Notes under the pieces: generated by a model
What the model was told of the DNA's origin: nothing
Seen by the model: only the letters and a program-made list of their open reading frames with translations
Databases searched by the model: none
Part shown: positions 1 through 48,069 of the stretch, piece by piece
Layout of the letters: each line of letters opens with the position of its first letter
Numbering within the stretch: the first letter of the stretch is position 1
Origin: a virus
Reading direction: 5' to 3' (one strand)
IMG/VR virus record: IMGVR_UViG_3300020383_000001
Span: 1-64,000 of that record
Length of the DNA: 64,000 nucleotides
Made by a program: the position numbers and the translations under genes

Positions 1-311
1 AAAACGTCTACTGCCAATCCATCTAAGTGTTTAGATTTCAGTGTTTGGGTTTTGCCCTCATCCAATAATTTCTTTTGCCTTTCTAAAGAACGTAGACCTT
101 CAGAAACACCGAAATCAACTTCTGAATAAGAAATTGCTAACTTAGTCAATTCCGCAATTTCTTTATCTACTCCTTCAAGGTTTTTTAAGCTGTTATTAGA
201 AAATTTAAATTTGTTTATTGGTTTCGGTAAGTTGTCTAATTGTTGATTCGAGCTTTGCAACGACCCGAAACAACTTACGATTTTTCCTTTTAGACCTTTT
301 ATAATTTTCAT
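1..311 (-). CDS. endolysin, L-alanyl-D-glutamate peptidase (peptidase M15C, phage T5 Lys-like); 3' end beyond window edge
   Basis: Not in the ORF track because it runs off the window. My own translation from ATG at 311 (RBS GGAGGTGAG upstream) gives MKIIKGLKGKIVSCFGSLQSSNQQ...DFGVSEGLRSLERQKKLL...LKSKHLDGLAVDV. SKHLDGLAVD fits the SxHxxGxAxD zinc-ligand motif, and the GLRSLERQ region matches T5-type endolysins. Confidence 0.7.
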   Translation of the reverse strand, partial: MKIIKGLKGKIVSCFGSLQSSNQQLDNLPKPINKFKFSNNSLKNLEGVDKEIAELTKLAISYSEVDFGVSEGLRSLERQKKLLDEGKTQTLKSKHLDGLAVDV

Positions 312-3125: not shown

Positions 3126-4346
3126 TTAAAGAAAATTATAGTAACCCAAATTAGTTTCTTGTACTTGTTGGGTTAACATTTCTAACTCTACTTCAATTAG
3201 AGTATCACCTTCACCAATAGAGTAAGCTTGTAAATTACCAGAAATTCCAATTAAGTTATTATCATTTAAAGTAACTTTTGTTGGAATTCTTGAGCTTAAC
3301 CGGTAGGTTTTAAACTCTTCAAAGGAATAGTGCATATCATTGTAAATATCACTTTCCCTGAACTCTTCCTCACTCATATCTTTATGTTTGTAGAAAGGAT
3401 TGGCAATACTAGTAGAAATACGAATAGAATCAGAATTAGTTGATTTAGCTAGTTCATTTTCTAATTGTAATCTTTTAGAGTTATCTTTAAAAGATACAAC
3501 TTTATAATTAGTTGAACTACTTTTACGTAGATTAGGTACATTCATGACTTCAACAATTGAGTTCAAAGTCTCTTCTGAATGTACTGCCCATTCGTACATG
3601 ATTTCATTCATGGTATCGAATGTACAAGAATTACGGCGATTGTAAGTAACAAGACTTTCAGTTTTATCAGCAGATAAACCGTATTCTTTTGCTAGTTCTT
3701 CAACTACTTCAGTTTCAAGTCCACTGAAGTTGTACAGATAACGCATACGACTAGGACGGTCTCGGAAATAGTTTGATAACATATAGCTTTCGTTATCGAT
3801 TAAAATCGTAAGACGTTTAGCATTGTTTGTGCCGCTGAAGAATGTAAGCATCTCATCTTGGCGCATTTTTGCCGTAGCAGAATTTGGTCGCTCATCTTCA
3901 CTCATTTTACTTAAGTGCTTTAAGAACTCGTCAAAGATTACAACACAGTCACCAATTGAGTTGATAAAACTTAAGTATTCTGGAGAAGTACTAAATGTAC
4001 CTGATACATCAATTACTGGGTAACCTTGGTTGATTGCGTGATTAGCAATTAGATTAGCCAACAGAGTTTTACCGGCTCCTTTATCACCAAATAAGCCAAC
4101 ACCAATAGAATCTTTTTTGTGCTGGTACATATCCCATATACGTGTTTTACGTGATTCAGCATTACCATAAATCTTCTCAGGTAATGAAATAGCTTGGCTC
4201 ATACGTTCTAAGTAATAACCGCCAAAAGGACCTTCTTTGATTTGGTAGTAAGCAGGTGGAAGTTTGTCAACGATTTGACCTTCTTGTACTACGAAAGGTC
4301 TGGCTAGTTTGCCATCAATAGCAAATTTTTTGATGTCTTTTGACAT
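3126..4346 (-). CDS. P-loop NTPase (AAA-like ATPase)
   Basis: Walker A GLFGDKGAGKT and Walker B-like VVIFDEF. Confidence 0.5.
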   Translation of the reverse strand: MSKDIKKFAIDGKLARPFVVQEGQIVDKLPPAYYQIKEGPFGGYYLERMSQAISLPEKIYGNAESRKTRIWDMYQHKKDSIGVGLFGDKGAGKTLLANLIANHAINQGYPVIDVSGTFSTSPEYLSFINSIGDCVVIFDEFLKHLSKMSEDERPNSATAKMRQDEMLTFFSGTNNAKRLTILIDNESYMLSNYFRDRPSRMRYLYNFSGLETEVVEELAKEYGLSADKTESLVTYNRRNSCTFDTMNEIMYEWAVHSEETLNSIVEVMNVPNLRKSSSTNYKVVSFKDNSKRLQLENELAKSTNSDSIRISTSIANPFYKHKDMSEEEFRESDIYNDMHYSFEEFKTYRLSSRIPTKVTLNDNNLIGISGNLQAYSIGEGDTLIEVELEMLTQQVQETNLGYYNFL

Positions 4347-4388
4347 GATAAACCTTAGTTATTTTTTGAGGGTGTGAAGATATTTTCG

Positions 4389-4600
4389 TATTAATTATGG
4401 CAGCTCTGAGGGGATTCGAACCACTACCTATGAAGTCAGTTTTGGCTTTCATTTGTGGCGCAGATTGACACAAACTATTAACCAAAGTTCACCTTCACTA
4501 GCCACCCCAATCTAATCTTGATGCTTAGGATTCCGCCGACTCTCGTCTGCGCTGCGAGCGTCCATCAAGCATGATTTGGTGCAGAGCTATAATTAATACG
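4389..4600 (-). ncRNA. candidate structured RNA: tRNA-like element (T-arm GGTTCGAATCC plus acceptor-like 3' end CAGAGCTGCCA) closed by a perfect 19-bp inverted repeat
   Basis: CGTATTAATTAT-GG-CAGCTCTG at 4389-4410 is the reverse complement of GCAGAGCTATAATTAATACG at 4581-4600. An internal 7-bp stem CTTGATG/CATCAAG and a T-loop consensus are present. No ORF. Confidence 0.3.
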
Positions 4601-5089
4601 ACCTCCCCGAAGGGAGGAAGAACTATTTGATGACAAGGCGTTACCCTTGCTAGCGTGTAGGGTATTAAGCTACTGCTAGATATTGGCTATCATTTGCATT
4701 TATAACGATTACCGTATAGTTGCTAGGCGACGACTCCTACTCAACTATGTAATGCGGTGACGGGTGGTGAATTTCCCGCTTGATTAAGTGATCAACCTGT
4801 TGCCATCCACTTAATCGCTAGATGAGCGTCAAGGTCAAAGCCTTGACCGATGTTAACTACCAATCACCACTTGGCAATTCACCGCATTGTTGAGTTGGCT
4901 TAAAGATTTTCCACACCATAAGTGCTTGTATCGAATGTTGCCTTTAAACCAACTCAAAAATAAGGTAAATAACGTCCCTGTGCGACCACGGTAGGGACAA
5001 CACCGTTAAGGAGGATTCACATGGCTAAGAACCCCAGGTCTATACAATCATTTCAATAAAACAACCAATTCCAGGCACCGGAGGTGCCA

Positions 5090-5380
5090 TTACCATTCAT
5101 AGGTATTCAAATGATCATAAACTTTGGCATCTCTATCTAACTCAATTAAAAGACAATCCATATCTAAAGCAAATGCAATTAGATGTGCAATGTCATTAGG
5201 TAAGCTTTTAATCAAGTTATCTTGATAGTGTGTATGAAGCTTAATGAAGAAACCTTCATCACGTTTCATGACAGTAAATGGTGTATCACCAGGACTCAAA
5301 CTATCTAGATACTGCATGGTTTCTAGGCTAATGTGCGAGGTACTTAGAGCAATACATTGGTAGAGTTCAGGTTCTTTCAT
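5090..5380 (-). CDS. hypothetical protein (96 aa)
   Basis: Listed ORF, flanked on both sides by matching GGA-loop hairpins. Confidence 0.35.
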   Translation of the reverse strand: MKEPELYQCIALSTSHISLETMQYLDSLSPGDTPFTVMKRDEGFFIKLHTHYQDNLIKSLPNDIAHLIAFALDMDCLLIELDRDAKVYDHLNTYEW

Positions 5381-5564
5381 AAAATCACCTGTTAGTATTT
5401 AGACTGGATTGAGTCAAAAATGCCTGATTTTTAACTTTTACAATTCAGGTAAGTTAACTTTTCTAGCAAACTATCATATTTGATTAAAATACGTAGAATT
5501 TGATAAAAAATAAAATCCACCTAAGCAGCCGGAGGCTGCCTAAGTGGAAGTTAACTTTAGTTGA

Positions 5565-6578
5565 TTAGCTTAATGCGTATTCAGCATCTTTCATGAGTTG
5601 AGCCAGGTTATCTGAACGCTTGATTACTTTAATTGGTTCACCAGTAATCTCAGTAAGAATGCTACTAAGTAGATCACTATCAGCAATCTCAATTAAGATA
5701 TCGAGATAGTTCTGACGCATATTCTGTACGTAGTTAGGATGACACCAGAATGAATCATGAATGGTAAGAATCTCAAAGCCTTGCTTATGAGCTCTACGCA
5801 CCATTTCACGTACCACATAGCCATCAATGGAATGCGTAACATTAGCGGCTAAACTAATACCAGATTCCATTGGCCGGTTAACGTATGCTTTGTGGGTGAA
5901 CGTAGCATGGTCAAGCTCATCTACTTCAATTTTCTTGGTTTCCTCATCCATGACTGGAACATACGCTGTATGCCCATCAGGAAGCGTCCATGAGTGGTAA
6001 TGAGCATTACCTTGCCAGCAGGACTGGATATCATTCATGACTTCAAGAGCACCGCCTAAGTCTTTCTCAAGCATTTCATTGAAGATTTCAAGCTCTTGAG
6101 TATCCTCACCGAATACAAGCTTAGGCTGCTCTTTTGAGCCATAGAACGTAGTCATAATGGGCTTCTTGAGCTTACTACGAGGAATATCATGTCCAATTTC
6201 TTGGCTCATGTGTTTAGCTACGCGCTCATACACATCCTCACGTTTACCTGTATTAATCAGGTTTACTGAGTGAGCTGTATCGTGACAACCAATCAGACAA
6301 GCCAGTATCTGCAAACCAGATGCTGTAGCATCTAAGCCAATAGGCGTACCGGAAGCGATACCACGTTTAGCATCTTTCCAGGTACGCAACATTTTGGCAT
6401 ACAGAATAGGCTCATCAGCTTCGTTTTCTAAGGCTTCAAGCCCTGACAATGAATGACTATTAAACCAGTTTAAACGCTGTTGCCATGTAAGTTTATCTAA
6501 GCCAAAGTGATTAGCTACTGCAATTTTGATGTATTCAAGTGGAGTAAATTGTTGCATTGGATTTTCCTTATAAATCAA
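5565..6578 (-). CDS. phage RNA polymerase II catalytic subunit (T7-like palm, N4 gp16-like)
   Basis: T7 RNAP motif A (GLDATASGLQIL, compare T7 DGSCSGIQH) and motif C (ILTIHDSFWCHP, compare T7 ALIHDSFGT). Confidence 0.8.
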   Translation of the reverse strand: MIYKENPMQQFTPLEYIKIAVANHFGLDKLTWQQRLNWFNSHSLSGLEALENEADEPILYAKMLRTWKDAKRGIASGTPIGLDATASGLQILACLIGCHDTAHSVNLINTGKREDVYERVAKHMSQEIGHDIPRSKLKKPIMTTFYGSKEQPKLVFGEDTQELEIFNEMLEKDLGGALEVMNDIQSCWQGNAHYHSWTLPDGHTAYVPVMDEETKKIEVDELDHATFTHKAYVNRPMESGISLAANVTHSIDGYVVREMVRRAHKQGFEILTIHDSFWCHPNYVQNMRQNYLDILIEIADSDLLSSILTEITGEPIKVIKRSDNLAQLMKDAEYALS

Positions 6579-9576: not shown

Positions 9577-9614
9577 TAAAATTAGGAAGGAAGAGAGCCC
9601 GAAGGCCCTCTCTG

Positions 9615-9737
9615 TTAATCTTCAAAGTCATCATTAAAATCGAGGACTAAATCAAAGTGGTCTTCAATAGGTAATTCAAACTCATAGTTATCAATGAATG
9701 CTTCTTCGATTGGTGAATCAATTGCTTGTGCTGTCAT
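9615..9737 (-). CDS. small acidic protein (40 aa), not in the ORF track
   Basis: My own translation: RBS GGAGGTTCAA then ATG, MTAQAIDSPIEEAFIDNYEFELPIEDHFDLVLDFNDDFED, with 16 of 40 residues D or E; the stop is followed by a hairpin. Confidence 0.3.
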   Translation of the reverse strand: MTAQAIDSPIEEAFIDNYEFELPIEDHFDLVLDFNDDFED

Positions 9738-9933
9738 TTGAACCTCCAGTGCTAACACCTAAATCTTGAGCAATGTAGCAATACACATCACTCGGTTTAT
9801 TTGCTTCATATTGCTGTAGCTCTTTCTCCATGAAGAGAGGAGTACAGGTTATATGTTTAACAGTTGTTTCACTGTTGTCTGTACCAATAGCTACTATCTT
9901 GTAGTTATGCTTAAAGGCCATAAGTAACTCCAA
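9718..9933 (-). CDS. hypothetical early protein (71 aa)
   Basis: Listed ORF downstream of a conserved promoter-like motif. Confidence 0.3.
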   Translation of the reverse strand: MELLMAFKHNYKIVAIGTDNSETTVKHITCTPLFMEKELQQYEANKPSDVYCYIAQDLGVSTGGSNDSTSN

Positions 9934-10183
9934 TTAACAAGTTATTACCATTGATTCGCTGAACGATAGTGAAGCGTTAAGGACAGATTAAGGAAATGAG
10001 TGAGCAGACTATTACCGAACAGGTTCGGAGATAAAAAACTAAGATGTAGGTTAAAAGGTAGTGAATCACACCAAATATTAGTGTATTTCGCCAACTCTAT
10101 AGTGAGAGAGCGAGTGAGAGAGATTAAGAAAGGAAAGGATATCTTTCTGTTTAATCGTACTATCTATGAAAGTGTAAGAGTGT

Positions 10184-10212
10184 AGGAAAAAAATAGAGGG
10201 AGCCGAAGCCCC
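10184..10212 (-). terminator. rho-independent terminator
   Basis: On the - strand, GGGGGC-TTCG-GCTCCC hairpin followed by TCTATTTTTTTCC, directly after the stop of the 10219..10434 gene. Confidence 0.55.
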
Positions 10213-10218
10213 CTAGTA

Positions 10219-10434
10219 TTAATCTTCACTTAGCTCACGGATACGAGCTTGAATCTGGTTTTCGATGTCAGACTCTTTAAGGTTACGTTTCTCAAGTTCA
10301 GCTTTATACTTCGCTTGTGAATCGGCGTAGTAGACCTTAGATGTATTACCAACAGCCATTGATGCAACGTGAGCTGCACGGAATAACTCATAGAAAGTAC
10401 CAAACAAAGCGCCAAGCATCTTAAAGAAGTTCAT
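10219..10434 (-). CDS. hypothetical protein, first gene of the leftward early block
   Basis: Listed ORF; followed by a terminator. Confidence 0.4.
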   Translation of the reverse strand: MNFFKMLGALFGTFYELFRAAHVASMAVGNTSKVYYADSQAKYKAELEKRNLKESDIENQIQARIRELSED

Positions 10435-10760
10435 AGTATTCTCCTAGTAATTAGTAGCAGTATTGCCGTTAGATAGACGACGAGGAACGAGGAGTCTTAG
10501 TGTAAGGTGGGGTAGGGTCTGATAAGAGTAAATGGCAGATTAGACCCCGGGGGGTATTCCGATTTTATTTAGCTCAGAAGAGACAGTACTGCTACCGTAC
10601 TTAATTATGAAAAAATTACCCTATGCAAAATTGTCTCAAAATATAATAAAAATGTGGGATATTTGCGGCCTATTTAAGCCACTGTAAGCTTTTCTTCCTT
10701 GGTTTGATGAAGTATGCTCAATTTTATTTTATTGGCTTAAAATCGCTTTAAGGAGCTTGT

Positions 10761-10979
10761 ATGGGTAAGAAGATTCTACCGGCTTATATTGTACGTATGA
10801 AAGATGAACTGTATGCGTTAGATGATAAGCTGTCGTTAGCCGAGGAGTTCCGTGAGACTCATATATTTAGTTCCTTGGCTCAAGGGGAGCAGAACTTATT
10901 AAATCAGCAGATAAAGCATATGAGAAGTTATGCTGATGTACTGGCTAAGAGGATTGAATTAGCAGAAGCTAGGAAATAG
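10761..10979 (+). CDS. hypothetical protein (72 aa)
   Basis: Listed ORF; GGAG 8 nt upstream; terminator follows. Confidence 0.4.
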   Translation: MGKKILPAYIVRMKDELYALDDKLSLAEEFRETHIFSSLAQGEQNLLNQQIKHMRSYADVLAKRIELAEARK

Positions 10980-10996
10980 CGCAGCGGTTGTGTTGC

Positions 10997-11019
10997 AAAA
11001 AACACCCTTGGGTGTTTTT
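10997..11019. terminator. bidirectional rho-independent terminator
   Basis: AAAAACACCC-TTG-GGGTGTTTTT: a perfect 10-bp stem flanked by an A-run and a T-run. Confidence 0.55.
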
Positions 11020-11165
11020 CTGCATAAGCCCGCAAGCGGTAGGATTGATATTAGTTGATAGTAGAGAAGGCGAAGCCCAGGACAGGAGGATAGGCTGGGG
11101 GCGAATGAAATGAGTTGGAAGGTCGGCAGTCATCCGACAAGTCTTTTGGGTAGTCTTATATTGTT

Positions 11166-11399
11166 AATCATCTGTGAGGATCGTTAATGTATGAGCCTAT
11201 ATGGGTGTATTTAGCTCATGGTTAAGCCAATGAGTAAGGTATGTAATCATAGATGATTCTGATAAAGGTAAATTAGCGATAATCACCAGTGATTACTCTA
11301 TGTGGCTAATCATCTATGAGGATCGCTAAAATATGAGCCTTGAACTTTGTTTTTGGATCATCTATGATTCGTTTTACCATTCTCATGATCACAGGTGAT
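11166..11399. promoter_or_regulatory. array of six 14-bp palindromic operator-like sites (AATCAY-NN-RTGATT) plus two 33-bp direct repeats
   Basis: Sites at 11166, 11245, 11281, 11308, 11357 and 11388; direct repeats AATCATCTGTGAGGATCGTTAATGTATGAGCCTAT and AATCATCTATGAGGATCGCTAAAATATGAGCCTTG; the last palindrome overlaps the start of the HTH gene. Confidence 0.45.
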
Positions 11400-38079: not shown

Positions 38080-41000
38080 ATGGTTGACCAAACTGATCCT
38101 TCCAGTACCCCAATTATGGAAGAAAATACTACAGCTGCTTCTTTAACAAAAGAAAAACAAAAAACAGTGCGTGAAAATTTTAATGAAAAAGCTAAGGCAG
38201 CAGCTAATATACAGCTTCAGAAAAAATTAGAGTTAGATCGTGAAAGCACAATTAGAAGTATTTATGTAGACCCAGATAAAACTGATGAAGCTGACTTTAT
38301 TCTGAATGGTAACCCAGCGCTTACTGTTGCAGAACGTAGATATATTCTTGCTAACTCAAAACGTAAGAAAGCCCAGAACCAATTAAGTGAAACTATTCGC
38401 TTACAGGATACTGCTCGCAGTGTTGGGGAAATGGCAGGGGATACTGCTATTTCTTTGGGTAAAGGTGCTGTCAATCTAGCTGGTGGTTTTTATGGTTTAG
38501 CTAACGTACTGTCACAAGGCTTGAATGCTACAGTAGGTACAGCAGGAAGAACAATCGGTTCATTGCTTGAAGACGGTTCTATATTTGATGAAGAAGGTAA
38601 TCTAGAAGCTGGTTTATTCAATACTGCTGGTATTGATACTGCTCTTAACTTATCAAAAGATTTTGTAGATACCCAAGATATTTTAAGTGGATTTCAGTCA
38701 GAAGGTTTACGTAATACCCGGGATGCAGTAAATCTAAGAGTAAGAGAAGCCAGACAACAAAGACTTACTGAGTTAAAAGAGCAGGGCATTGATCCAACTG
38801 AATTAGCAAACCAACTAAAAGTCGAAGGCACTGGTTTCACAGAGACCTTGGGTGCTATGTGGGATAACCCACAGCTAATTGTTGATGGTTTACTGGAAAC
38901 AGGACCTGAGTTCCTAGGTGGTGGTCTTGTTAAGAAAAGCGCTGATACCTTTCTTACTGGCTTAAAGAAATTAATTAAAAAAGATGGAAGTGGTGTAGCA
39001 GAAAAAGCCGCTGAAGGCATCTCAGATGCCACAGCAGGTACAATCAATATTGTAGCAGGTGAAGCAGGCAATACAGCTAACCAAGCTGCTGCTTCTGTGC
39101 TTAGGATGTCTGATGAAGATGTAATGGAATCCAAAGCAGCAGAGGAATTGCTTAAAGAAAATCCTGATTACACTCCAGAACAGATTAAACGAATATTGGC
39201 AGATCAAGCCAGTATGACAGCATTTGCTATTGCTGGTCCCTTATCAGTACTTACAGGTAAAGTAACTGGTGCAGCTAAACTAGAGGGTAGTGTATTACAG
39301 CGTCTTTCAGGACAGAAAGGTAATATAGCCGATAAAACGGCAGGAGTACTTGGCCAAACTGTGAGCGAAGGCTCAGAAGAGCTAGTTCAAGGTGTTACTG
39401 GCGCAGTTGCGGAAAATGTAGCTGTCGGTGAAGCACTCGACAAAAAGGATTACAACCCTGTCGAAGGAGCAGGTGAACAAGCCGCAGCAGGTTTAGTTAT
39501 TGGCTCTGCTTTAGGTGGTTCGCTAGGTACTGTACAAAAAACTGTAGAAGCAATTAAAGATGGTAGCACTATTGCTGGTGGTGCTGCTGAAACTGTACAG
39601 GATAGTAAAGATATTCAGGCCGGCAATTATGAAGAAGTCATAAAACGAGCTGCAGAAAATGACCAACCTGACAGAGCTTTGGCTGCTTTGACTGATGGGC
39701 GGGTACTACAAAAAGTACGCAACAAAAGTCAAGAAGATCCTGATGCCGTAATCACACATGGCAAAGCAATATCTAAGCAATACAACCGTAGTATTGCTAT
39801 GCTTCAAGAATTACACAAAGCAGAATTAGAAGCCAAAGACAATAAAGATACTAAGGCTGTTAAACGTATCCAACGCCGTAAGCAACAAATAGAGCAAACT
39901 CTTGTTAAGTATAAAAACAAAGAGATTAAGGTAATTGATTACCTAATTGGCAACAAAGCCCAAAGTGCTGAAGCTAAAGCTACTATAGATAAACTGTCTT
40001 CTACTGAACAAGAAGTAGAATTGTCAGATGACGAAATCAACAATGCTATTAAGTATTTTGGCTCAGACCCTAGTGCAGTTGATACAGAGTCATTAGCTAA
40101 ATTCGAGACAGTGTCAGAAAGATTAAACCCAGCCCAAAAACAACGCTTGAGTGACATTAAAACAGTTAAGCAAGCTGAGAATAGTCTTGCAGAAGTAGCT
40201 GGTAAAAAATCTATTGATGAGGTTAACTCAGAAGTACTTACTGGCAAATCAAAACAGTTTGTTGGTTTACGCACCCATCAGTCTGCAGTCAACAATGCTT
40301 TAAAAATCCAAGACAAAGAAACTGCAGATGAAGCCGTAGGTAATATGCGTTCATTTGTTGAACAGAGAATACGCAAAGCTAATTTGGCTAAACGTATTTT
40401 TGACGGAATCAAAAACAATAACCCAGAGGTATCAACTTTACAGGAGAAATTCAAAGAAGAATTCTCTTATGGTTCTGCCAATGATAAAGGTGCTTTTATT
40501 GACCAACGCAGTGGTAAATTAGTTCGCACTTTAGGGGCTGAAGCAGAGTTAGCTAAAGCTTACTTCAATAATGTACAAGGAGCTTATCAAAGTACGTTTA
40601 ACGAAGAAGTGGAAGCACCAAAATACGATGTCAATTTACCAAGTCAAGATAGTCTGGTACCTGATGTTGAGACGGATATTCCGGAAGCAGAAGTAACTAC
40701 TGAAAATCTAGAAACAGAGGTAGAAACAGATTTAACTCCTGAGACTGCAGAATCAGTCGATACTCCTAAACAAGATGTTGAGCCAGTTACACAAGAAACA
40801 GAGGTCCCTCAAGAAGACACTGAAAAAGCTCCTTCTATGGCTCAAGAAGTCTTACAGGAGCTGGAAACAACAGAGACTAAAGAGCAGCTCAAGAATCGTA
40901 CTGATACGTATGTAGAACGTGTGTTCTCAGAAAGAGTTCTTAAACGTGGTACTCGAATAAAAACTAAAGAGCTATCCAAGATCCGAAAAGATATTGGTGA

Positions 41001-44000
41001 CACCCTGAAAAATGTCATCGACCAACGAGATGATATTACCCCTACTCAGGTTAAAGAAGCAGTGGATACTGTTGCACAAGGTTATACAGACCGTGCAGAA
41101 GATAACGTAGATACAAATAATAAATCTGGCTTGTACCGTTATGGGGTTAAGTTAGCTGAGAAAGCTAATGCTAAGTTCTCGTTGCAGACTCGCTTAATGG
41201 AAGCATCAAGAAATCTTAATAGCTTGTTCCGTATTAAACCAGGCCCTAAAGGTTTCCTATCTAGTAGGCTTAATCCTATTGATTGGTTGGTATCACGTAA
41301 AGAATTGAGTCAGCTTCCAACTGGTGACAGTAATTTCTTGATTGCCATGAAAGAGTATCGTGACGTATTTCAAGAAGCCATCAATAAACCAGAAGTATTT
41401 GGTAATTATTTCCGTAAAGCCAAAGACTCAAAAGATAATCCAATTACTTGGTTACAGACTCGAACCAAGAGACAGACAAATAACTTTACTTCTACTGGCT
41501 TAGAACAAAATGTAGTAGATGCTATGTTCGTAGCTGGTATGGAAGCTATTGGACGTACTCTCAACAAACATGAAAATAGTGAAGACGATATACGAGGCAT
41601 TGTTGGTGATAACAATACAAATGCTGATGATAGTATCACTGCTGCACAGTATAAAAACTTTGCTTACATTGGAATAAACAAAGCAACTATCATTGATCAA
41701 ATTGGTAACAATGTATTAAATCTTCTTGGCTTACAAGAGAAGCAATATATCGATCAAGATGTTATTGATGAGAACGGTAATATCACCGGCAAAGAACGTA
41801 TCTACTTAGATCCAACTAATCAGGAGAGACTGGCAGTTGCTTTAGGTAATTTTGTCTTATCTGGTTTAGCAAGTACTGGAGCAATTGAGATTACTTTATA
41901 CCCTAACGAGGTAATTGAGAAAGCTAAACTTAAAGAGAATAAGTTGAGCATTCCTCAGCTATTGGAAGCTCGTTTTAAAGAGAAGCAAACTGATTATACA
42001 GAAGTTGCTTTTGTTAAGCCTGTATCCACTGGCACCTCAAGTTCTGATTTGCACCCGATGATTCGTAAGATTACTGGGGCATTCTCAAATATGTCGCCTA
42101 ACTTTTTTGATGAGACCTTTGGTTTAGATAGTGAACCTAAAGAGCCATCTTTGGAGCCTATTAAACTCAAGCAGACGAATTATAAGAAGACCCTTCAAAA
42201 GATACCTGCTCGGGTTAAAAAAATCTTACAACGCCATTCAGAGCGTCCTATTCAAACCAAGGAAGGTATTTCTGCTTTGGTTTCTAATCTGTTTGATGTG
42301 ACGTTTGATTCTTCAATCACACTGGGTACCAAAGAGGATGACATGATACGGAACAAACTCCGTATTGGTCTATTTGGTTTCACTGATTTAGATACTATGC
42401 CGGCTGATTTGGTACACCATAAAAAAGCTAAGAATGATTCTATTCTACGTGATATCACCTTGAACGTAGATTGGATGAATAGTGTCAAAGACAAAGTATT
42501 TTACGTGCCTCATGAATTATGGCGTAACAGTCGTTTTGGTATCGCTTCTGCTGTGGCTAATATGCAGAACAGTAAATTAGCTCGCCATATGTTTTCTTAC
42601 TCAGACCAGAGAGTTGAAATAGATCTGATAAATGGTGATGAGGAAACTAACTTAGGTTTCAGATTAGCACTAGCTCAACACCTAGGAATAAAAATAGACA
42701 AAAACACTATTGATACTTCTCTTGAGCAACTCGAAGAGCTAGAAAATGACCCAACTATTTTAGAGGGTCTGCAGGTACTTTCTGAGATTGAGCAGGGTGA
42801 AGTCACTGCAGATACAGCTAATAAATTACTGGCTGCAATAGAGAAAGCAGGTAATGAAAACTTTCAATCTCTTGAGGGGCTAATAAATCTTAAGCGTTAC
42901 CTAGAAGCCAAAGATAATGGTAAACCTTTTACCACAGATATTGGTATCGAGGTTGATGGCGTAAACAATGGTGTAGCTATCAGCCTAATTCAGTTTGGTG
43001 CTGACAATCCAGATACGACTAAGATGATGCTAGAAGCAACCGGCGTATATATGGATGGAAAGTTTACTAACTTTTCTGAATGGCGCAATGCTGGTGAAGA
43101 AACCAAACAAGACTTGTATGAGATGTTCAGTGAACAATGGGGCAAGTTAGTAGAAGCTGATGCAAATAGGCTTGGTGAAGCTAGTTTACTACCTTACTGG
43201 AAAGTCTTAATAGGCGATATGCTTGATAACAGAGGTCTAGTAACCAAACTTGGTAGAGACCTGGCTAAACCTATTGTAATGACTGGTAACTATTTAGCAG
43301 GCTACAGTAGCCAATTCAGCAGCTTCAGTGATGAAGTGTATGAAAAGATGCTTATCAAGTTGGTTAACACTGAATCACAAGATTTCATTGGTACGTTTGT
43401 AAACTTGATGGAACGATTGGAAGAACCTCTAAATGCCAAGCAATTAAAGACTTTAGCTGAAAACCCTAAAAAGTTGTCACTAAGCCCAAAACAAGCAGGC
43501 AAACTGTATAGATCATTAGCTACTGTATATTTTGGACCGATGAAAGATGCTTCTGAAATTTCATTTGGGACCATCAGAAAAAGAATGCAGGATTTTGCTT
43601 TCTCTTACCAAGTAGGCTTTGAGACTTGGTTTGCTTTCTATGAAAAAGCCCAGGAAGCTAAAAGAAATGAGCTTGGTATTGATAAAGGTAAACCATTACC
43701 TAAAGACGTAGAAGCTGAGTTGTATGAGTCAACCATACAATACGCACCAGTCATGCCTTCTTATTTCAGTGGAGATATGACAGAAGCGTTAGAAATGTAC
43801 AAGACAGCTCGTGATCGTCTAACAAGCAAGGATACCCGTGTAATACTTAAGTTTGGTGAGGGTAACCAAAATATACGGTCTATTAGACCACTAGCTTCAG
43901 CAGAAGCTGGAAAGGTTATTGATGGTATTCCTTACAATTTTAATAAAAGTGTCTCAGATCAACCTAGTTATCGTAAGTTTACAAATCCCGGTGTTGCGCC

Positions 44001-47000
44001 TGGTGCCCGGGCAGTACAGTCTCTTGATGGTACAACAATGCTGCTTTTCCTTGAGAAAATCGGAGCATTGAATATTCATGATGCTGTCATGCTTCCTGTA
44101 GATAAAGCATTCTCAAGCACCAAAGCAATGAACGAAGCCTTCTTAGAAGCTATGGATTATTCTTTACCTATGGCAGGTGGCACAATGCTTAATAAAGCAT
44201 TTACTGTCATACGTAAAGCTAAAACACGTTTGGATCCTAATCAATCTAACTTAGCTGTTATTGCTAAGAGATTAGGCGTTAAACCAACTAAAAAGAAAAC
44301 AGCCGAGCAAGTGCTGTACGCTAAGATTTTTAATGCCGGCAGAAATCTAAATGTTGCTAATGCGTCCCGTAAAGAGGTACTATCCCGCATTTCCAGCCTT
44401 GGTCAGTACCATTTACCTAATGGTGAATTATATGTTCAAGAGAAGCCTACAGGGGGCCCTGAAATTGATTTGAATACTCTTGGATCAGAAGATTCAGTAT
44501 TCAGTGATTTTAATCCAACAACAGTAGATACGATTACTCCAACCAACAGTGGAGCTTTATTTGGTAAGTTGGCTCAATTAGACGGTGACGCATTACCTGA
44601 ATCACATTATGAGCAGTTGTCCAGTGTGCTCGATATCGTTGTTAATCGAGTAATAGACCCACTTAAAGTCCGTATACAGAACATGAGTCCTCGGGCTGTT
44701 GGCAGGTTCCAAGCAGATAGCAAAACCGTTGATTTAAAACTTACTGGTAGTAACGCAAACCAAGGTAATAAATCAAACGCTGAGGTCTATGTTCACGAAT
44801 TAGTCCATGCTGTTACAGAAGAGGGTTTTCGTAATAAGCCAAGAGCTCGGGCAGAAGTCAAAAAAGTATTTACTGCAGTACGTAACGCAGGGATGAGACT
44901 GTATCCTGATAATCCTGAGTTGCTGTTACTTAGCAATCCTTTAGCAGCATCTGATGTACAGCGTCGCAATGCTAAAGAAGTTTGGGATTATGTAATGGAC
45001 AACAACCAGGGTACCTACCTGGACGAGTTTATTGCACATGGTTTAACTAATGAGTTAATGCTTACAGCATTGAAGAACCCAGAGGTAGACAAAGAATTAA
45101 GTAAGATTCGGAGAACATTTAACTTAACTACTAAGTCTGATGCCACTTTTACAAGAGTAGTTGTGGGTGCTTTAGATATGGTTCTGAATATCTTTTCTGA
45201 CTTACTTAATGTGTTTGCTGACAAGTACTTTAAAACAACAGATATGAAAGCTGATGCCCGAGTATTTGCTTTAGCTCAGTATTTGGGGGAAAAAGAAGCA
45301 GAGCACACAAGCAAATTTTGGAAAGCCATCGAAAAAGTAGAAGGCTTTAATGCTGTCAGTAACAAGCAAGTTAGAGAGTGGATTATTGAGCCACTTATTA
45401 AGTACGCCGAGAAATCTAAAATATCTCAAATCAAACAACTAAGTACTATCATTGGTAGTGTTGTTACAGATCGCGTTACCCCAGAAGGCTTTAGTGCGAC
45501 TGTGAAAATGGTAATGAACCGAACCAGTATCAGCAAAGACAACCTTGCTGCTTCTTTAATGCGTGAATTACAGGGGCAAAAGAAAGATAACCGTGGATTG
45601 TATAAGTTACTTAGATTATCAGGTAAACACGTAGACCAAGCTCGTAAGCATACAAGTAATGCTGTTAAATCTGTTGCCCGAGGTTATTTCAAAGTTGCTC
45701 CTACCAGAGATCAAAGTGAAGCAATTACACGCATAGGATTTAAAACAGACCTGTCTTCGTTACTTTTGGATGACATGGCTTTACGTAATATGACTCCAGA
45801 GCAGGTAGATGAATACTTATCTAACCCAGCTAATCAAAATAGTTTTAAGCGTAATGCTGAATTGATAAAAGACTTAGTTGGCTCAGGTGATGTAAGAGCT
45901 CGTGAAATTAAAAAGCTTGAAGATTCTATTCGTAATGAGTTTGGTGCCAATGCTCAGTACTACATAATGCAGGCACGTAGCCTAGGTAGCTTAATGGCTA
46001 ACGGTATCCCATTGTTAGAAGACTCGTTAAGAAACGCTCATGCTATTGCTAATTTAGCTGGTAGAAGCTCTATGCAGCCTGTAGGTGACTTAGCCATAGC
46101 AGAATTACTGATTGACCAACTTGCTACTTTGCATGGCTTAGATAACAGTTCAGATACTGATTTACGTAACTTCTATGAAATCTTTTCTGAGGAAGCCTCA
46201 CAGCCAGATAATGACATAGTAAATAATGGTGTCATTAAAACATTACAGATGTACGCTCAATTTAAGCGAGAGTCTTTGGATACCTTATTTGAGGGTAATC
46301 CTATGCTGACTACTAAGGGCTATATAAAAGAAATTACTAACCCGAATATTGGGTTGGCATTTGCTCAAACTCAGGAAGAACGCAAAGCTCTTGAGAAACA
46401 GGGGTACCAGTTTATTAAGACAGTTGGTAAAGACTCCTCAGACTTTAACCAAAGAAAGACTCATATCTATCGCAGTAAAGTAGCAGGTATGAATACTTAC
46501 AATAAGGCAATCCTGTCTATAACAGGTATGCGTAAATCTGGTACAACTTTATATGATGGTCATGTAATTAGTAATACTGGGGACCCTAGCTTAGCTTCAA
46601 TTGTAGATGTGAAGCGTGTACGTCGAATTAATGAAAACAGATATAAAAATAATCAGTATGGGTTACAGGAAGGGGTGTTATTGCAGCCTGTACTAAATCC
46701 AGCCGGGGATATTGTAGATTATCGCTATGTGATGGCTGAGGCTACTAGAAGACAGTTGTTGGATAGAAATGACGACTTTGGTGAAGTCATCGGGGGAATG
46801 TATGGAAACATGGTTGATAAACGCAATAGCGTGGAAATTAATAACAGTGCTATCAAGTACTTGAAAGATTTCTACGATAATGCAGATGACCTGGATACTG
46901 AATGGGTAGAGCTCAGTCCTACTTCTGATGATAAAGATGCTAGAGAATTTTGGAATATGCTTCCAGAAAGCACTCGTCAATATGCTAAAGAAGTCTGGAA

Positions 47001-48069
47001 TAACAAGCCAGTGATGATCCGGAAAGAGGATTATCGTTTGGTTACTGGTTTCCGTAAGTGGAGTATCTCCAGTATCGATACGGAAAGAATGCGTAAATCA
47101 CAAAATCAAATGATGCGCTTAGCCGGTGAGTACATAACCAAAGCAGTTAATCGCCCGGGGGTACGGATTACTGAAAATGTAATCCAAGAATTGGTGCGTA
47201 TGGCTAAAGACACGATTGTAGTGAAATCTGGTGGTGTGCTGTTAGCCAACATATTAAGTAATGCTGTTGTTCTACGTACTGAGGGTATCCCAGTAAGTAA
47301 ACTGATTAAGTATCAAGCAGAGGGTTGGAAATACGCGGCAGAGTATAAAAAAATGGATCAAGAACTTAGTCAACTACAAATAGAATTGGCTAGTGATCCA
47401 CGAATGGGCCGTACTAAGAAAAAACGTAAAGAAGCTCGTATTGCTCAGCTTGGTAAAGAAATGCAGCTTAGCCCAGTAAGAGACCTCATTGATGAAGGCA
47501 TGTTTCAAACAATTGTTGAAGATATTGAGTTGGAAACAGAGTCCTTCACTTATAAGAGTCAATTAGAACAATGGGTTAGTCCAATTACAGATAAGGTGCC
47601 TCAAAGTCTTAAAGACATAGGCAATACTCTATTCATGACCCATGATACTAAGTTGTACCGAGCGTTATTGGATGCAACTCAACTATCTGACTTTGTTGCT
47701 AGATACGCACTGCATAAGCATCAATTAGAAAACGGCATGGAGTACAATGAATCGGTAACAAGAATTGTTGATACTTTTGTGGATTATGATTCACCTACTC
47801 ATGTATCAATACAGTACTTGAATGATATGGGTGTATTAATGTTTACCAAGTTCTTTATTCGTATTCAGAAAGTGATACTAAGACAAATTAGAGAAAATCC
47901 TGGTAATGTGTTGTCGTTTGTGTTGATGCAACAACTATTAGGAATTGATGCACCAGATATCTTTGAAACAATTGCATTAGACCCTGGCAATTTGGGTAAT
48001 AGGTTATATAGCCCGTTCGGAGCATTAGAGGATGTAATGCAATTGCATCTGCTAAACGTGTCACCATAA
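38080..48069 (+). CDS. virion-encapsidated RNA polymerase (N4 gp50-like giant vRNAP)
   Basis: 3329 aa; central T7-like motifs: A (IEVDGVNNGVAISLIQFG), B (LAKPIVMTGNYLAGY), C (ALNIHDAVMLPVD); last gene of the late block, as in N4. Confidence 0.85.
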   Translation: MVDQTDPSSTPIMEENTTAASLTKEKQKTVRENFNEKAKAAANIQLQKKLELDRESTIRSIYVDPDKTDEADFILNGNPALTVAERRYILANSKRKKAQNQLSETIRLQDTARSVGEMAGDTAISLGKGAVNLAGGFYGLANVLSQGLNATVGTAGRTIGSLLEDGSIFDEEGNLEAGLFNTAGIDTALNLSKDFVDTQDILSGFQSEGLRNTRDAVNLRVREARQQRLTELKEQGIDPTELANQLKVEGTGFTETLGAMWDNPQLIVDGLLETGPEFLGGGLVKKSADTFLTGLKKLIKKDGSGVAEKAAEGISDATAGTINIVAGEAGNTANQAAASVLRMSDEDVMESKAAEELLKENPDYTPEQIKRILADQASMTAFAIAGPLSVLTGKVTGAAKLEGSVLQRLSGQKGNIADKTAGVLGQTVSEGSEELVQGVTGAVAENVAVGEALDKKDYNPVEGAGEQAAAGLVIGSALGGSLGTVQKTVEAIKDGSTIAGGAAETVQDSKDIQAGNYEEVIKRAAENDQPDRALAALTDGRVLQKVRNKSQEDPDAVITHGKAISKQYNRSIAMLQELHKAELEAKDNKDTKAVKRIQRRKQQIEQTLVKYKNKEIKVIDYLIGNKAQSAEAKATIDKLSSTEQEVELSDDEINNAIKYFGSDPSAVDTESLAKFETVSERLNPAQKQRLSDIKTVKQAENSLAEVAGKKSIDEVNSEVLTGKSKQFVGLRTHQSAVNNALKIQDKETADEAVGNMRSFVEQRIRKANLAKRIFDGIKNNNPEVSTLQEKFKEEFSYGSANDKGAFIDQRSGKLVRTLGAEAELAKAYFNNVQGAYQSTFNEEVEAPKYDVNLPSQDSLVPDVETDIPEAEVTTENLETEVETDLTPETAESVDTPKQDVEPVTQETEVPQEDTEKAPSMAQEVLQELETTETKEQLKNRTDTYVERVFSERVLKRGTRIKTKELSKIRKDIGDTLKNVIDQRDDITPTQVKEAVDTVAQGYTDRAEDNVDTNNKSGLYRYGVKLAEKANAKFSLQTRLMEASRNLNSLFRIKPGPKGFLSSRLNPIDWLVSRKELSQLPTGDSNFLIAMKEYRDVFQEAINKPEVFGNYFRKAKDSKDNPITWLQTRTKRQTNNFTSTGLEQNVVDAMFVAGMEAIGRTLNKHENSEDDIRGIVGDNNTNADDSITAAQYKNFAYIGINKATIIDQIGNNVLNLLGLQEKQYIDQDVIDENGNITGKERIYLDPTNQERLAVALGNFVLSGLASTGAIEITLYPNEVIEKAKLKENKLSIPQLLEARFKEKQTDYTEVAFVKPVSTGTSSSDLHPMIRKITGAFSNMSPNFFDETFGLDSEPKEPSLEPIKLKQTNYKKTLQKIPARVKKILQRHSERPIQTKEGISALVSNLFDVTFDSSITLGTKEDDMIRNKLRIGLFGFTDLDTMPADLVHHKKAKNDSILRDITLNVDWMNSVKDKVFYVPHELWRNSRFGIASAVANMQNSKLARHMFSYSDQRVEIDLINGDEETNLGFRLALAQHLGIKIDKNTIDTSLEQLEELENDPTILEGLQVLSEIEQGEVTADTANKLLAAIEKAGNENFQSLEGLINLKRYLEAKDNGKPFTTDIGIEVDGVNNGVAISLIQFGADNPDTTKMMLEATGVYMDGKFTNFSEWRNAGEETKQDLYEMFSEQWGKLVEADANRLGEASLLPYWKVLIGDMLDNRGLVTKLGRDLAKPIVMTGNYLAGYSSQFSSFSDEVYEKMLIKLVNTESQDFIGTFVNLMERLEEPLNAKQLKTLAENPKKLSLSPKQAGKLYRSLATVYFGPMKDASEISFGTIRKRMQDFAFSYQVGFETWFAFYEKAQEAKRNELGIDKGKPLPKDVEAELYESTIQYAPVMPSYFSGDMTEALEMYKTARDRLTSKDTRVILKFGEGNQNIRSIRPLASAEAGKVIDGIPYNFNKSVSDQPSYRKFTNPGVAPGARAVQSLDGTTMLLFLEKIGALNIHDAVMLPVDKAFSSTKAMNEAFLEAMDYSLPMAGGTMLNKAFTVIRKAKTRLDPNQSNLAVIAKRLGVKPTKKKTAEQVLYAKIFNAGRNLNVANASRKEVLSRISSLGQYHLPNGELYVQEKPTGGPEIDLNTLGSEDSVFSDFNPTTVDTITPTNSGALFGKLAQLDGDALPESHYEQLSSVLDIVVNRVIDPLKVRIQNMSPRAVGRFQADSKTVDLKLTGSNANQGNKSNAEVYVHELVHAVTEEGFRNKPRARAEVKKVFTAVRNAGMRLYPDNPELLLLSNPLAASDVQRRNAKEVWDYVMDNNQGTYLDEFIAHGLTNELMLTALKNPEVDKELSKIRRTFNLTTKSDATFTRVVVGALDMVLNIFSDLLNVFADKYFKTTDMKADARVFALAQYLGEKEAEHTSKFWKAIEKVEGFNAVSNKQVREWIIEPLIKYAEKSKISQIKQLSTIIGSVVTDRVTPEGFSATVKMVMNRTSISKDNLAASLMRELQGQKKDNRGLYKLLRLSGKHVDQARKHTSNAVKSVARGYFKVAPTRDQSEAITRIGFKTDLSSLLLDDMALRNMTPEQVDEYLSNPANQNSFKRNAELIKDLVGSGDVRAREIKKLEDSIRNEFGANAQYYIMQARSLGSLMANGIPLLEDSLRNAHAIANLAGRSSMQPVGDLAIAELLIDQLATLHGLDNSSDTDLRNFYEIFSEEASQPDNDIVNNGVIKTLQMYAQFKRESLDTLFEGNPMLTTKGYIKEITNPNIGLAFAQTQEERKALEKQGYQFIKTVGKDSSDFNQRKTHIYRSKVAGMNTYNKAILSITGMRKSGTTLYDGHVISNTGDPSLASIVDVKRVRRINENRYKNNQYGLQEGVLLQPVLNPAGDIVDYRYVMAEATRRQLLDRNDDFGEVIGGMYGNMVDKRNSVEINNSAIKYLKDFYDNADDLDTEWVELSPTSDDKDAREFWNMLPESTRQYAKEVWNNKPVMIRKEDYRLVTGFRKWSISSIDTERMRKSQNQMMRLAGEYITKAVNRPGVRITENVIQELVRMAKDTIVVKSGGVLLANILSNAVVLRTEGIPVSKLIKYQAEGWKYAAEYKKMDQELSQLQIELASDPRMGRTKKKRKEARIAQLGKEMQLSPVRDLIDEGMFQTIVEDIELETESFTYKSQLEQWVSPITDKVPQSLKDIGNTLFMTHDTKLYRALLDATQLSDFVARYALHKHQLENGMEYNESVTRIVDTFVDYDSPTHVSIQYLNDMGVLMFTKFFIRIQKVILRQIRENPGNVLSFVLMQQLLGIDAPDIFETIALDPGNLGNRLYSPFGALEDVMQLHLLNVSP

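Follow-up and report, generated by a model that had tools for sequence, protein, structure and literature searches.

A tmRNA-derived RNA family of bacteriophages that may act on host tmRNA, and its divergent member in a marine N4-like phage

Introduction

Transfer-messenger RNA (tmRNA, ssrA RNA) mediates ribosome rescue in all bacteria, a process of importance for the growth of certain phages. Here, an RNA locus at positions 4347-5089 of a 64,000-nt stretch of viral DNA (positions 1 to 64,000 of IMG/VR record IMGVR_UViG_3300020383_000001; the whole of this stretch is referred to as the window) was analysed computationally. The core of this locus is a tmRNA-like tag module and a candidate member of a phage RNA family that is described below.

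Phage-borne tmRNAs have been reported before. Of 18,146 phage genomes surveyed with ARAGORN, 402 had tmRNAs, some of them two-piece forms from marine phages (PMC9004378), and phage tmRNAs are also known from mycobacteriophages (Bxz1 group) and Bacillus phage G, while DS6A has the tRNA-like domain (TLD) only (PMC4131195). The 'TLD-only' tmRNA of DS6A is thought to titrate SmpB, according to the statement in PMC4131195 that cites Mao et al. 2009. Moreover, anti-tmRNA (anti-ssrA) oligonucleotides suppress trans-translation in vitro in a cell-free system (PMC3384345).

Compared with canonical tmRNA (RF00023), the window locus shows the same A-rich resume context followed by GCA, a tag that starts with A-N-D and has a small hydrophobic end, a stop codon looped out at the tip of a helix-5-like hairpin, a further hairpin after it, and a T-arm with CCA about 275 nt downstream of the resume codon. 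It differs in that the tag ends with LAVA rather than LAA, that pair 3-70 is C-G rather than G-U, that the arm preceding the tag is, by homology with the family, antisense and not sense to the region of pseudoknot 1 (PK1), resume codon and tag, and that the stretch free of open reading frames (ORFs) is twice the size of a tmRNA. With the tmRNAs of Methylophilales phage Melnitz and pelagimyophages (PMC9004378) and of the Bxz1 group (PMC4131195) it has in common that a phage appears to carry an ssrA derivative, the tRNA-like and mRNA-like functions of which are separable, and with the Melnitz and pelagimyophage tmRNAs it also shares the marine phage setting. Those tmRNAs are, however, complete, detected by ARAGORN and equipped with alanine-type acceptor stems, whereas ARAGORN with default settings reports no tmRNA in the window. 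In permuted tmRNA genes the acceptor piece comes first, whereas in the window the tag precedes the tRNA-like domain, a domain that is missing altogether from most relatives of the module. The DS6A case, as far as it is set out in PMC4131195, is similar in that a phage keeps a partial tmRNA, presumably to interfere with host trans-translation; it is at the same time a mirror image, since DS6A kept the tRNA-like domain and the phage family kept the mRNA-like domain together with an antisense arm. The anti-ssrA oligonucleotides of PMC3384345 share the complementarity to tmRNA, but they are artificial DNA and have neither a replacement tag template nor a structured body. GOLLD and ROOL RNAs are likewise large, structured, phage-borne and located in ORF-free stretches; the window locus differs from them in that it has no Rfam 15 sequence or structure match and in that its core is of recognisable tmRNA ancestry. 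Neither a tmRNA-like phage RNA without tRNA-like domain nor a natural anti-tmRNA RNA was found described in the literature searched, the coverage of which was limited, and the family is absent from Rfam 15 and from GenBank/RefSeq annotation. Such absence is not proof of novelty.

Identification and conservation of the phage RNA family

The whole region had no match when compared by blastn with 50,697 phages at E≤1e-5. A permissive blastn search with the tag region (E≤10) exposed unannotated matches in the tRNA clusters of FelixO1-like phages and in Vi01-like phages. The family was found in 692 GenBank phage records with one query and in 640 with a second query, as well as in 96 IMG/VR contigs and 133 of 5426 complete Escherichia coli genomes, and no copy in these three collections is annotated as RNA. 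It spans Ounavirinae, Ackermannviridae, enteric N4-like phages (B2, Pollock, PhAPEC7, PD38), several siphovirus genera and SSU5; the copy of lambdoid phage HK633 is located between PR'/tR' and the holin gene. ARAGORN with default settings reported no tmRNA in family members, and Rfam gave only sub-threshold tmRNA matches.

A covariance model (CM), termed R1, was built from 13 enterobacterial and Aeromonas phage sequences with the window left out. It scores 167-178 bits on family members and gave a single cmsearch match in the window, which extends over positions 4738-4583 of the minus strand with 50.2 bits (E 3.6e-7). Because R1 scores 50.2 bits on the window and 7.5 bits on E. coli ssrA, the window element appears as a divergent member of the phage family and not as a diverged copy of a bacterial ssrA. 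The conserved core thus very probably belongs to a tmRNA-derived phage RNA family.

The structure of the family is supported by covariation, for which the preliminary description of the locus, made from the window sequence alone, had proposed to look among related phages. Across helix 5, the next stem and an H-type pseudoknot, 91.8% of the cells in the alignment of the 13 sequences are paired, and compensatory changes were observed in 10 of 16 pairs. None of 500 shuffles reached the observed values, and slid controls collapsed.

The tag frame is conserved in all 15 homologues compared and comprises exactly 10 codons in 14 of them; the remaining one (12 codons) is L004, a 1.7-kb contig with an ATPase gene product 70% identical to that of the window. 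The tag consensus is A-N-D/E-x-x-Y/F/V-L-A/M-A/V-A, which ANDSQYLAVA of the window fits. In these 15 copies the variable tag codons are free of insertions, deletions and stop codons, and neither of the other two frames shows conservation.

In most copies a sigma-70-like promoter (TTGACA-17-TAxAxT) of the element itself is located about 7 nt upstream of the RNA, and the copy of Shigella phage B2 also has its own intrinsic terminator. Directly after many copies comes a tRNA (Arg, Gly or Leu) or a tRNA-like element. Family members are without a canonical alanine tRNA-like domain in cis. In siphovirus and lambdoid copies (L019:1640-1870, L020:1650-1837, L022:640-960, L026:640-822) the module extends about 200 nt further, and long-range helices are conserved in this extension (CAACAGGUAAGAGCA/UGCUCUUUCCGUUG and GUGGUG/CCACCAC). 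At about 350 nt, the complete RNA of these phages is of tmRNA size, yet has no T-loop.

Complementarity of the 5′ arm to host ssrA

In the enteric members, the segment from the 5′ end of the RNA to just before the resume context is colinear antisense to nt 54-108 of ssrA, which comprise the 3′ half of PK1, the A-rich linker, the resume codon and tag codons 1-6. Four blocks of pairing are listed in Table 1. The E. coli ssrA sequence used was checked against RefSeq; the initial version had differed only at nt 152, 163 and 266. Since duplex prediction with the full-length module and tmRNA was uninformative (RNAduplex returns unrealistic duplexes for long sequences), windowed tests were used instead. 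Duplexes with E. coli ssrA 54-108 reached -40 to -46 kcal/mol in 7 of 13 members and -39.5 kcal/mol or stronger in 8 of 13, and for 8 of the 13 members none of 40 shuffles paired as well with ssrA. Against its own tag region the arm reached only -13 to -23 kcal/mol, and against other ssrA windows -18 to -36 kcal/mol. For 52 distinct arms from IMG/VR the median was -43.3 kcal/mol as compared with -21.5 kcal/mol for shuffles (median z -5.2) and -19.5 kcal/mol against the own tag region. One abundant lineage pairs with codon 2 as well, which results in a nearly continuous duplex. As judged from the sequences, this contrast between host and self pairing is difficult to account for unless complementarity to host ssrA has been under selection.

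The corresponding arm of the window was located by the CM alignment. Its hairpin UAGUUG..CAACUA displays the loop AGUCGUCG (4735-4728), and R1 aligns GGAGUCGUCG, GCAACU and UACGG of the window onto the family blocks UAGUUUUCGU, GCGACU and UGCGG. In the arms of the window and of L004 the block layout of the family is kept and the letters differ. Both marine copies have UCGUCG in the hairpin loop, which is a plausible nucleation site. The block GCAACUAUA is the exact antisense of UAUAGUUGC, which we take to be a typical gammaproteobacterial resume context, and GGAGUCGUCG of the window and GGAAUCGUCGUU of L004 are antisense to (AA)C GAC GAY UCC. From these blocks we predict a host ssrA of the form ..CCGUA..UAUAGUU-GCN-AAC-GAC-GAC-UCC-UAC.., the tag of which would start with ANDDSY. 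Pairing of the window arm with the ssrA of its own host is thereby inferred by homology. L004 has an 8-nt exact complement to tag codons 2-4 of E. coli ssrA (3 of 300 shuffles as good).

The core tag module of the window

On the minus strand of the window, the resume context, tag frame, helix 5 and the following hairpin are present in the order of the family (Table 1). For this region Rfam gave only tmRNA-type matches, all sub-threshold. Two are local matches to tmRNA RF00023: model positions 86-140 at 4704-4652 on the minus strand, and the T-loop (model positions 350-360) at 4422-4412. In a further sub-threshold match to tmRNA_permuted only a PK1-like hairpin and the tag are aligned. At a relaxed threshold (-ps80), ARAGORN reports the resume consensus and the tag ANDSQYLAVA*, together with a tRNA-like domain that is unconvincing. 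Helix 5 of the window keeps its pairing through an A-U pair where the family has G-C. L004 contains a homologous element with the tag ANDNNYTMEAAA* and a clear 5-bp version of the pseudoknot, in which GAAUG pairs with CAUUC.

tmRNA had been named in the preliminary description merely as a scan target; it turned out to be the correct lead, but the locus is not a canonical tmRNA. As a one-piece tmRNA it scores 10.9 bits with a gathering score of 47 (RF00023), ARAGORN calls none by default, and there is neither an acceptor stem of the 5′ and 3′ ends (P1) nor a P2 helix enclosing PK1 and tag. As a permuted two-piece tmRNA (RF04321, RF01849-51) it scores 15.5 bits against 47, and no T-loop with CCA is located upstream of the tag. 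An apparent duplication of the tag inside the locus (4442-4455 versus 4683-4696) was discarded, as it scores no better than shuffles.

The tRNA-like domain and the 5′ structured domain

A tRNA-like module in the 3′ part, which the preliminary description had claimed, is real: T-arm, 7-nt acceptor strand, discriminator G73 and a CCA ending at 4398 form a closed domain of 191 nt. The segment 4425-4398 shows the order that is typical of tmRNA, with a GGUUCGAAUCC-type T-loop followed by 7 nt, the discriminator base and CCA. The acceptor pairs are A1-U72, G2-C71 and C3-G70, pair 3-70 not being G-U. AGCUCUG downstream of the tag is the sole 7-bp partner of the 3′ acceptor strand with Watson-Crick pairs throughout; the other 7-bp partner (4842-4836) needs two G-U pairs and sits within another hairpin. 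A search for a G3:U70 stem beside a CCA yielded only candidates without T-arm. The domain contains two long arms of about 78 nt each, the apical loops of which are complementary over 7 nt (GCGCAGA at 4543-4537, UCUGCGC at 4464-4458). With this size and these arms it was rejected as an ordinary tRNA, being called neither by ARAGORN with default settings nor by the Rfam tRNA model RF00005; relaxed ARAGORN reports a tRNA-Asp here only by invoking a 192-nt intron. An 11-bp helix continues the acceptor stem into the flanks and is, in the folded model, a precursor-type stem around the tRNA-like domain. In our reading, the 3′ domain would serve RNA processing and stability and would, by analogy, be the counterpart of the tRNA that follows the module in other phages.

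Comparable elements were observed in other phages. Unannotated long tRNA-like genes of 119 and 166 nt adjoin the tag module in the Ounavirinae tRNA clusters of Escherichia phage EcSzw-2 (L018:947-1065) and Erwinia phage SunLIRen (L017:452-617), respectively. In both, the 7-bp acceptor stem is perfect, and T-arm, G73 and an encoded CCA are present; the layout resembles the 191-nt domain of the window, and both are uncalled by ARAGORN and the Rfam tRNA model. In Ackermannviridae, a conserved mini tRNA-like element of about 66 nt is located just upstream of the module promoter (Kuttervirus PhiSH19, L015:1254-1318; Agtrevirus SKML-39, L016:454-520), with acceptor GGCGAGG/CCUCGCC, T-arm GUGUGG-UUCGAUU-CCACAC and no encoded CCA. 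In PhiSH19 the module is additionally followed by a tRNA-like domain that ends with CCA (L015:1636-1761). A second conserved hairpin element, CACUUGAUYGAGGUC...CUGUAAAAUGAAUCCACRGAGUGU, is found upstream of the tag module in Shigella phage B2 (L021:390-472) and downstream of it in SKML-39 (L016:833-918); its GAAUCC(A) is complementary to GGAUUC of the D-loop analogue of ssrA. The region 5012-5035 of the window is faintly similar to this element (AUGUGAAUCCUCC), which may be chance.

The 5′ structured domain (5035-4751) is stable by fold and without available homologue. The segment 4740-5075 folds with -108.6 kcal/mol as compared with -88.1 +/- 5.7 kcal/mol for shuffles (z -3.6). Inside its multi-branch part (4751-4888), hairpins are formed by GUCAAGG/CCUUGAC and GAUUAAGUG/CACUUAAUC. 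The hairpin at 5074-5088, directly after the stop codon of the DUF5983 ORF, is a terminator-like element and a possible 5′ boundary of the RNA.

Genomic setting of the locus

The window is the genome of an N4-like phage (Schitoviridae) from marine metagenomes and encodes a virion RNA polymerase in an ORF of 3329 aa (38080-48069). The nearest relative in GenBank is Alteromonas phage vB_AemP_PT15-A5, with an ATPase 39% identical. Tara and ENA assemblies hold identical copies of the phage segment. In one case the identical phage segment is part of a metagenome contig of 218,408 bp (L002; ERZ908569 contig k127_545020), a length some three times that of an N4-like genome, as could result from concatemers, from chimeric assembly or from another cause. 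Close relatives were sought in IMG/VR and JGI metagenomes by protein and by DNA pattern and none were found, the phage itself being absent from the collections scanned.

Between 526 and 9576 every gene is encoded by the minus strand, and the RNA locus is flanked by an AAA ATPase gene (3126-4346, minus) and a DUF5983 ORF (5090-5380, minus). A 96-aa upstream ORF had no homologues besides itself. Several features that had been read directly from the sequence held up. The locus is without credible ORF: among ORFs of at least 30 aa there are only a 56-aa TTG ORF, which overlaps the ATPase start, and two of 34-35 aa. GC content is 43-47% across 4351-5100 as compared with 31-38% in the flanks. The complementarities listed in the preliminary description are all present (4751-4760/4879-4888, 4766-4776/4873-4883, 4782-4790/4808-4816 and the hairpin at 4602-4617). 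The dense base pairing was borne out as well: the 743-nt minus strand folds with -241.6 kcal/mol, shuffles with -200.6 +/- 7.7 kcal/mol (z -5.3; 0 of 20 shuffles as stable), and the plus strand with -216.8 kcal/mol (z -4.1). The evidence points to an RNA locus on the minus strand, the same strand as the flanking genes; the preliminary description had named no strand. The location beside a tRNA locus had been put too loosely, since the sole tRNA (Met, 1021-1096) is 3.3 kb distant.

Homologues of the ATPase at 45-50% identity have protein genes upstream in place of the RNA locus. Because related marine phages lack it upstream of the ATPase, the RNA locus behaves, in this sequence comparison, as a lineage-specific insertion. 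Synteny with the N4-like Shigella phage B2 was considered and rejected, as the downstream gene of B2 is not an ATPase homologue. In four of the marine relatives (L005, L008, L010 and L012; ATPase 45-49% identical), tRNA clusters are located just downstream of the ATPase gene and no RNA locus upstream; the tRNAs in these clusters are Met, Ile, Arg, Gly, Pro, Tyr, Glu, Ser and Asn.

A strong intrinsic-terminator-like hairpin (15 bp and U-run) was observed at 5516-5548 on the minus strand, directly after the RNAP2 large-subunit gene (5565-6578). The RNA locus may therefore be transcribed together with the DUF5983 ORF as a unit of its own. At 9577-11394, where the genes switch from minus to plus strand, 1.8 kb are without ORF of at least 80 aa and no Rfam family matched; this is probably the early region of N4-like phages with small genes and promoters.

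Table 1. Features of the RNA locus in the window, and ssrA blocks paired by the arm of enteric phage members
Feature	Position	Strand	Sequence or pairing	Basis or remark
Core tag module	4583-4738	-		Full-length match to family model R1 (positions 1-168)
Arm homologous to the anti-ssrA arm of the family	4704-4750	-		CM alignment
Arm blocks	4737-4728; 4723-4715; 4716-4712	-	GGAGUCGUCG; GCAACUAUA; UACGG	
Resume context	4703-4698	-	AUAAAU	Canonical tmRNA type
Tag frame	4697-4665	-	GCA AAU GAU AGC CAA UAU CUA GCA GUA GCU UAA = ANDSQYLAVA*	
Helix-5-like hairpin	4650-4679	-	CUAGC..GCUAG, GUAG..CUAC; UAA stop in loop	CM alignment, Rfam local match
Hairpin at PK2 stem position of the family	4634-4649	-	CAAGG-GUAACG-CCUUG	CM alignment
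C(UUCG)G tetraloop hairpin	4602-4617	-	CCUCCC-UUCG-GGGAGG	Sequence, folds
11-bp helix	4387-4599	-	GUAUUAAUUAU (4599-4589) / AUAAUUAAUAC (4397-4387), bulging GCC	Inverted repeat, fold
Closed tRNA-like domain, 191 nt	4398-4588	-		Sequence; fold z -2.95
Acceptor stem, discriminator and CCA	4588-4582 / 4408-4402; 4401; 4400-4398	-	AGCUCUG / CAGAGCU; G73; encoded CCA	
T-arm	4425-4409	-	AGUGG-UUCGAAU-CCCCU	One U-C mismatch in T-stem
Hairpin, then U-rich tract	5074-5088	-	GGCACC-UCC-GGUGCC	Sequence, minimum free energy fold; terminator-like scan match 5082-5070
5′ structured domain	4751-5035	-		Inverted repeats; fold
5′ domain hairpins	5012-5035; 4975-4999; 4892-4955	-		
5′ multi-branch domain	4751-4888	-	Closed by AAUGCGGUGA/UCACCGCAUU and GUGGUGA/UCACCAC	
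Antisense block, enteric members	ssrA 97-106		UAGUUUUCGU : ACGAAAACUA	
Antisense block, enteric members	ssrA 86-91		GCGACU : AGUCGC	
Antisense block, enteric members	ssrA 75-80		UUGCGG : CCGCAA	
Antisense block, enteric members	ssrA 68-73		UUUUUA : UAAAAA	

Discussion

The RNA of this family consists of two joined parts, a 5′ arm that is antisense to host ssrA in enteric phages and an own resume context with 10-codon tag, helix 5 and pseudoknot or hairpin. It would anneal to the alanyl-tmRNA of the host and mask the host tag template, with nucleation at the 5′ end of the RNA in enteric phages and at the hairpin loop AGUCGUCG in the window copy. The annealed phage RNA would bring its own template alongside the tRNA-like domain of the host and, because a complete resume context and tag are carried, would offer this template to rescued ribosomes. 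Ribosome rescue would then continue with the phage-encoded tag being added instead of the host tag; at minimum, host tagging would be blocked. In the window, a cut by RNase P at 4588 would set the 3′ end of the tag module.

That a tmRNA-derived RNA pairs with host tmRNA and masks or replaces its tag template is put forward as the best explanation of the whole, although tentatively and with somewhat less than even confidence. An action on host trans-translation by pairing with host ssrA appears rather probable for the family, and for the window copy the case is close to balanced, leaning slightly to doubt. Actual tag replacement is a possibility to be held with reserve. So is the wider proposal of a two-RNA, trans-acting form of trans-translation, a 'tmRNA hijacker' in many phage families (N4-like, FelixO1-like, Vi01-like, lambdoid and several siphoviruses), in which rescue would be performed by host alanyl-tmRNA and SmpB with a tag chosen by the phage; tags in ..LAVA or ..LMAA would replace ..ALAA, and the 743-nt locus of the window would be a marine, elaborated version.

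Several points weigh against this explanation. The ribosome could unwind a short duplex, so that masking alone may not divert tagging, and the tRNA-like domain with CCA in cis in the window and in Kuttervirus could mean a self-contained function. Family members share ancestry and their counts are not independent observations, and the window copy has only one diverged homologue, L004, which is partial. In the window the PK2 stem CAAGG/CCUUG is present and the pairing of its loop to downstream sequence, with only about 3 bp, is not evident. The window arm does not pair significantly with E. coli ssrA (25 of 300 shuffles as good), E. coli serving here as a stand-in for the host. A scan of genome collections for the predicted host tag (GCAAACGACGAYTCC) gave 120 scattered random matches and no tmRNA; in a stricter scan of metagenomes there were 2 matches, neither of which ARAGORN called as tmRNA, and the one inspected was coding-like sequence.

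The main rival is an inhibitor or decoy only, which would bind host tmRNA by its antisense arm or titrate a factor recognising the body of tmRNA (S1, SmpB or RNase R) and so shut down host trans-translation, with the tag frame, inherited or structural in nature, never being translated. This is unlikely, though a serious contender: the antisense evidence supports it equally, anti-tmRNA oligonucleotides alone block trans-translation (PMC3384345), the TLD-only tmRNA of DS6A is, from what PMC4131195 states of it, a precedent for a phage that keeps half a tmRNA, and tag codons 7-10 overlap helix 5, so that part of the amino-acid conservation could be RNA-structural. The conserved pattern of the frame is nevertheless what a translated tag predicts and counts against inhibition as the only function. 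AUAAAU|GCA is conserved, codons 4-6 vary and yet are free of indels and in-frame stops, position 6 is aromatic or hydrophobic, and the stop codon stays in the helix-5 loop in all 15 copies, the distant marine ones included. A self-contained, rearranged tmRNA is less likely than the inhibitor and on the whole improbable. Here the 3′ domain would be aminoacylated and work with the upstream tag module, either within a single RNA or, once RNase P has cut, as a two-piece molecule, and no host tmRNA would be needed. T-arm, 7-bp acceptor stem, discriminator and encoded CCA in exact tRNA geometry fit such an RNA, as do the distance of 275 nt from resume codon to T-loop, which is that of one-piece tmRNA, the tRNA-like domain with CCA after the module in Kuttervirus PhiSH19, and the known phage tmRNAs, including two-piece forms, in marine phages (PMC9004378). 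It is disfavoured because C3-G70 leaves the universal alanine identity element G3:U70 absent, because the 5′ acceptor strand is located downstream of the tag, so that no P1 and P2 helices surround the tag module, and because most family members have no such domain, or an ordinary tRNA or terminator follows. Moreover, default ARAGORN and the Rfam models for tmRNA, permuted tmRNA and tRNA all fail, and L004 has no T-arm downstream of the tag.

The remaining explanations account for less of the data. A passive, non-functional relic of a captured and rearranged bacterial ssrA fragment, arising for example by imprecise excision or recombination, has precedents in the ssrA fragments of prophages, for which ssrA is an integration site (PMC9004378). 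It is nonetheless very improbable, since the element is conserved in virulent phages of unrelated families, shows compensatory changes, has promoters of its own and keeps its reading frame, since family members are much closer to each other (178 to 50 bits) than to ssrA (7.5 bits), and since N4-like phages do not integrate. The preliminary description had proposed a large phage non-coding RNA, which could be of the GOLLD or ROOL type, intron-like or a new class. What stands of this is a structured non-coding RNA locus with a tRNA-like 3′ module, and a core in an apparently undescribed phage RNA family, which is, however, derived from tmRNA and in that respect not a new class. For a giant ornate RNA or a group I or II intron or ribozyme speak only the length (about 0.7 kb), the occurrence in a phage and the abundance of base pairs; GOLLD, ROOL, HEARO and group I and II introns had no Rfam 15 match (gathering thresholds over the whole window; E≤10 over 4100-5600 and 4380-4875), the core is explained by the tmRNA-like family and no host gene is interrupted, which leaves this identity scarcely plausible. 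Still less credible is a decayed protein-coding gene, an explanation to which the small proteins encoded by relatives between RNAP2 and ATPase might point: tblastn with eight neighbour proteins against 4250-5450 left no trace of one (best E 1.8), and RNA structure signals account for the region.

Conclusions

On a conservative reading, a new tmRNA-derived RNA family has been found that was missed by ARAGORN, Rfam 15 and GenBank/RefSeq annotation, and with its covariance model R1 a distant member from a marine phage is retrieved. The chance that a new mechanism, the viral reprogramming of host tmRNA, is involved is substantial, and the proposal can be put to a direct test in E. coli with phages that are already available. 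If it is true, hundreds of sequenced phages hold an unannotated tmRNA-targeting RNA, the carriers including E. coli prophages and, among the phages of E. coli, Salmonella, Klebsiella and Erwinia, some that serve as models or in therapy, and ORF-free gaps in phage tRNA clusters and N4-like genomes would be explained. The fusion of an antisense arm to a replacement tag template would then represent a new kind of host take-over.

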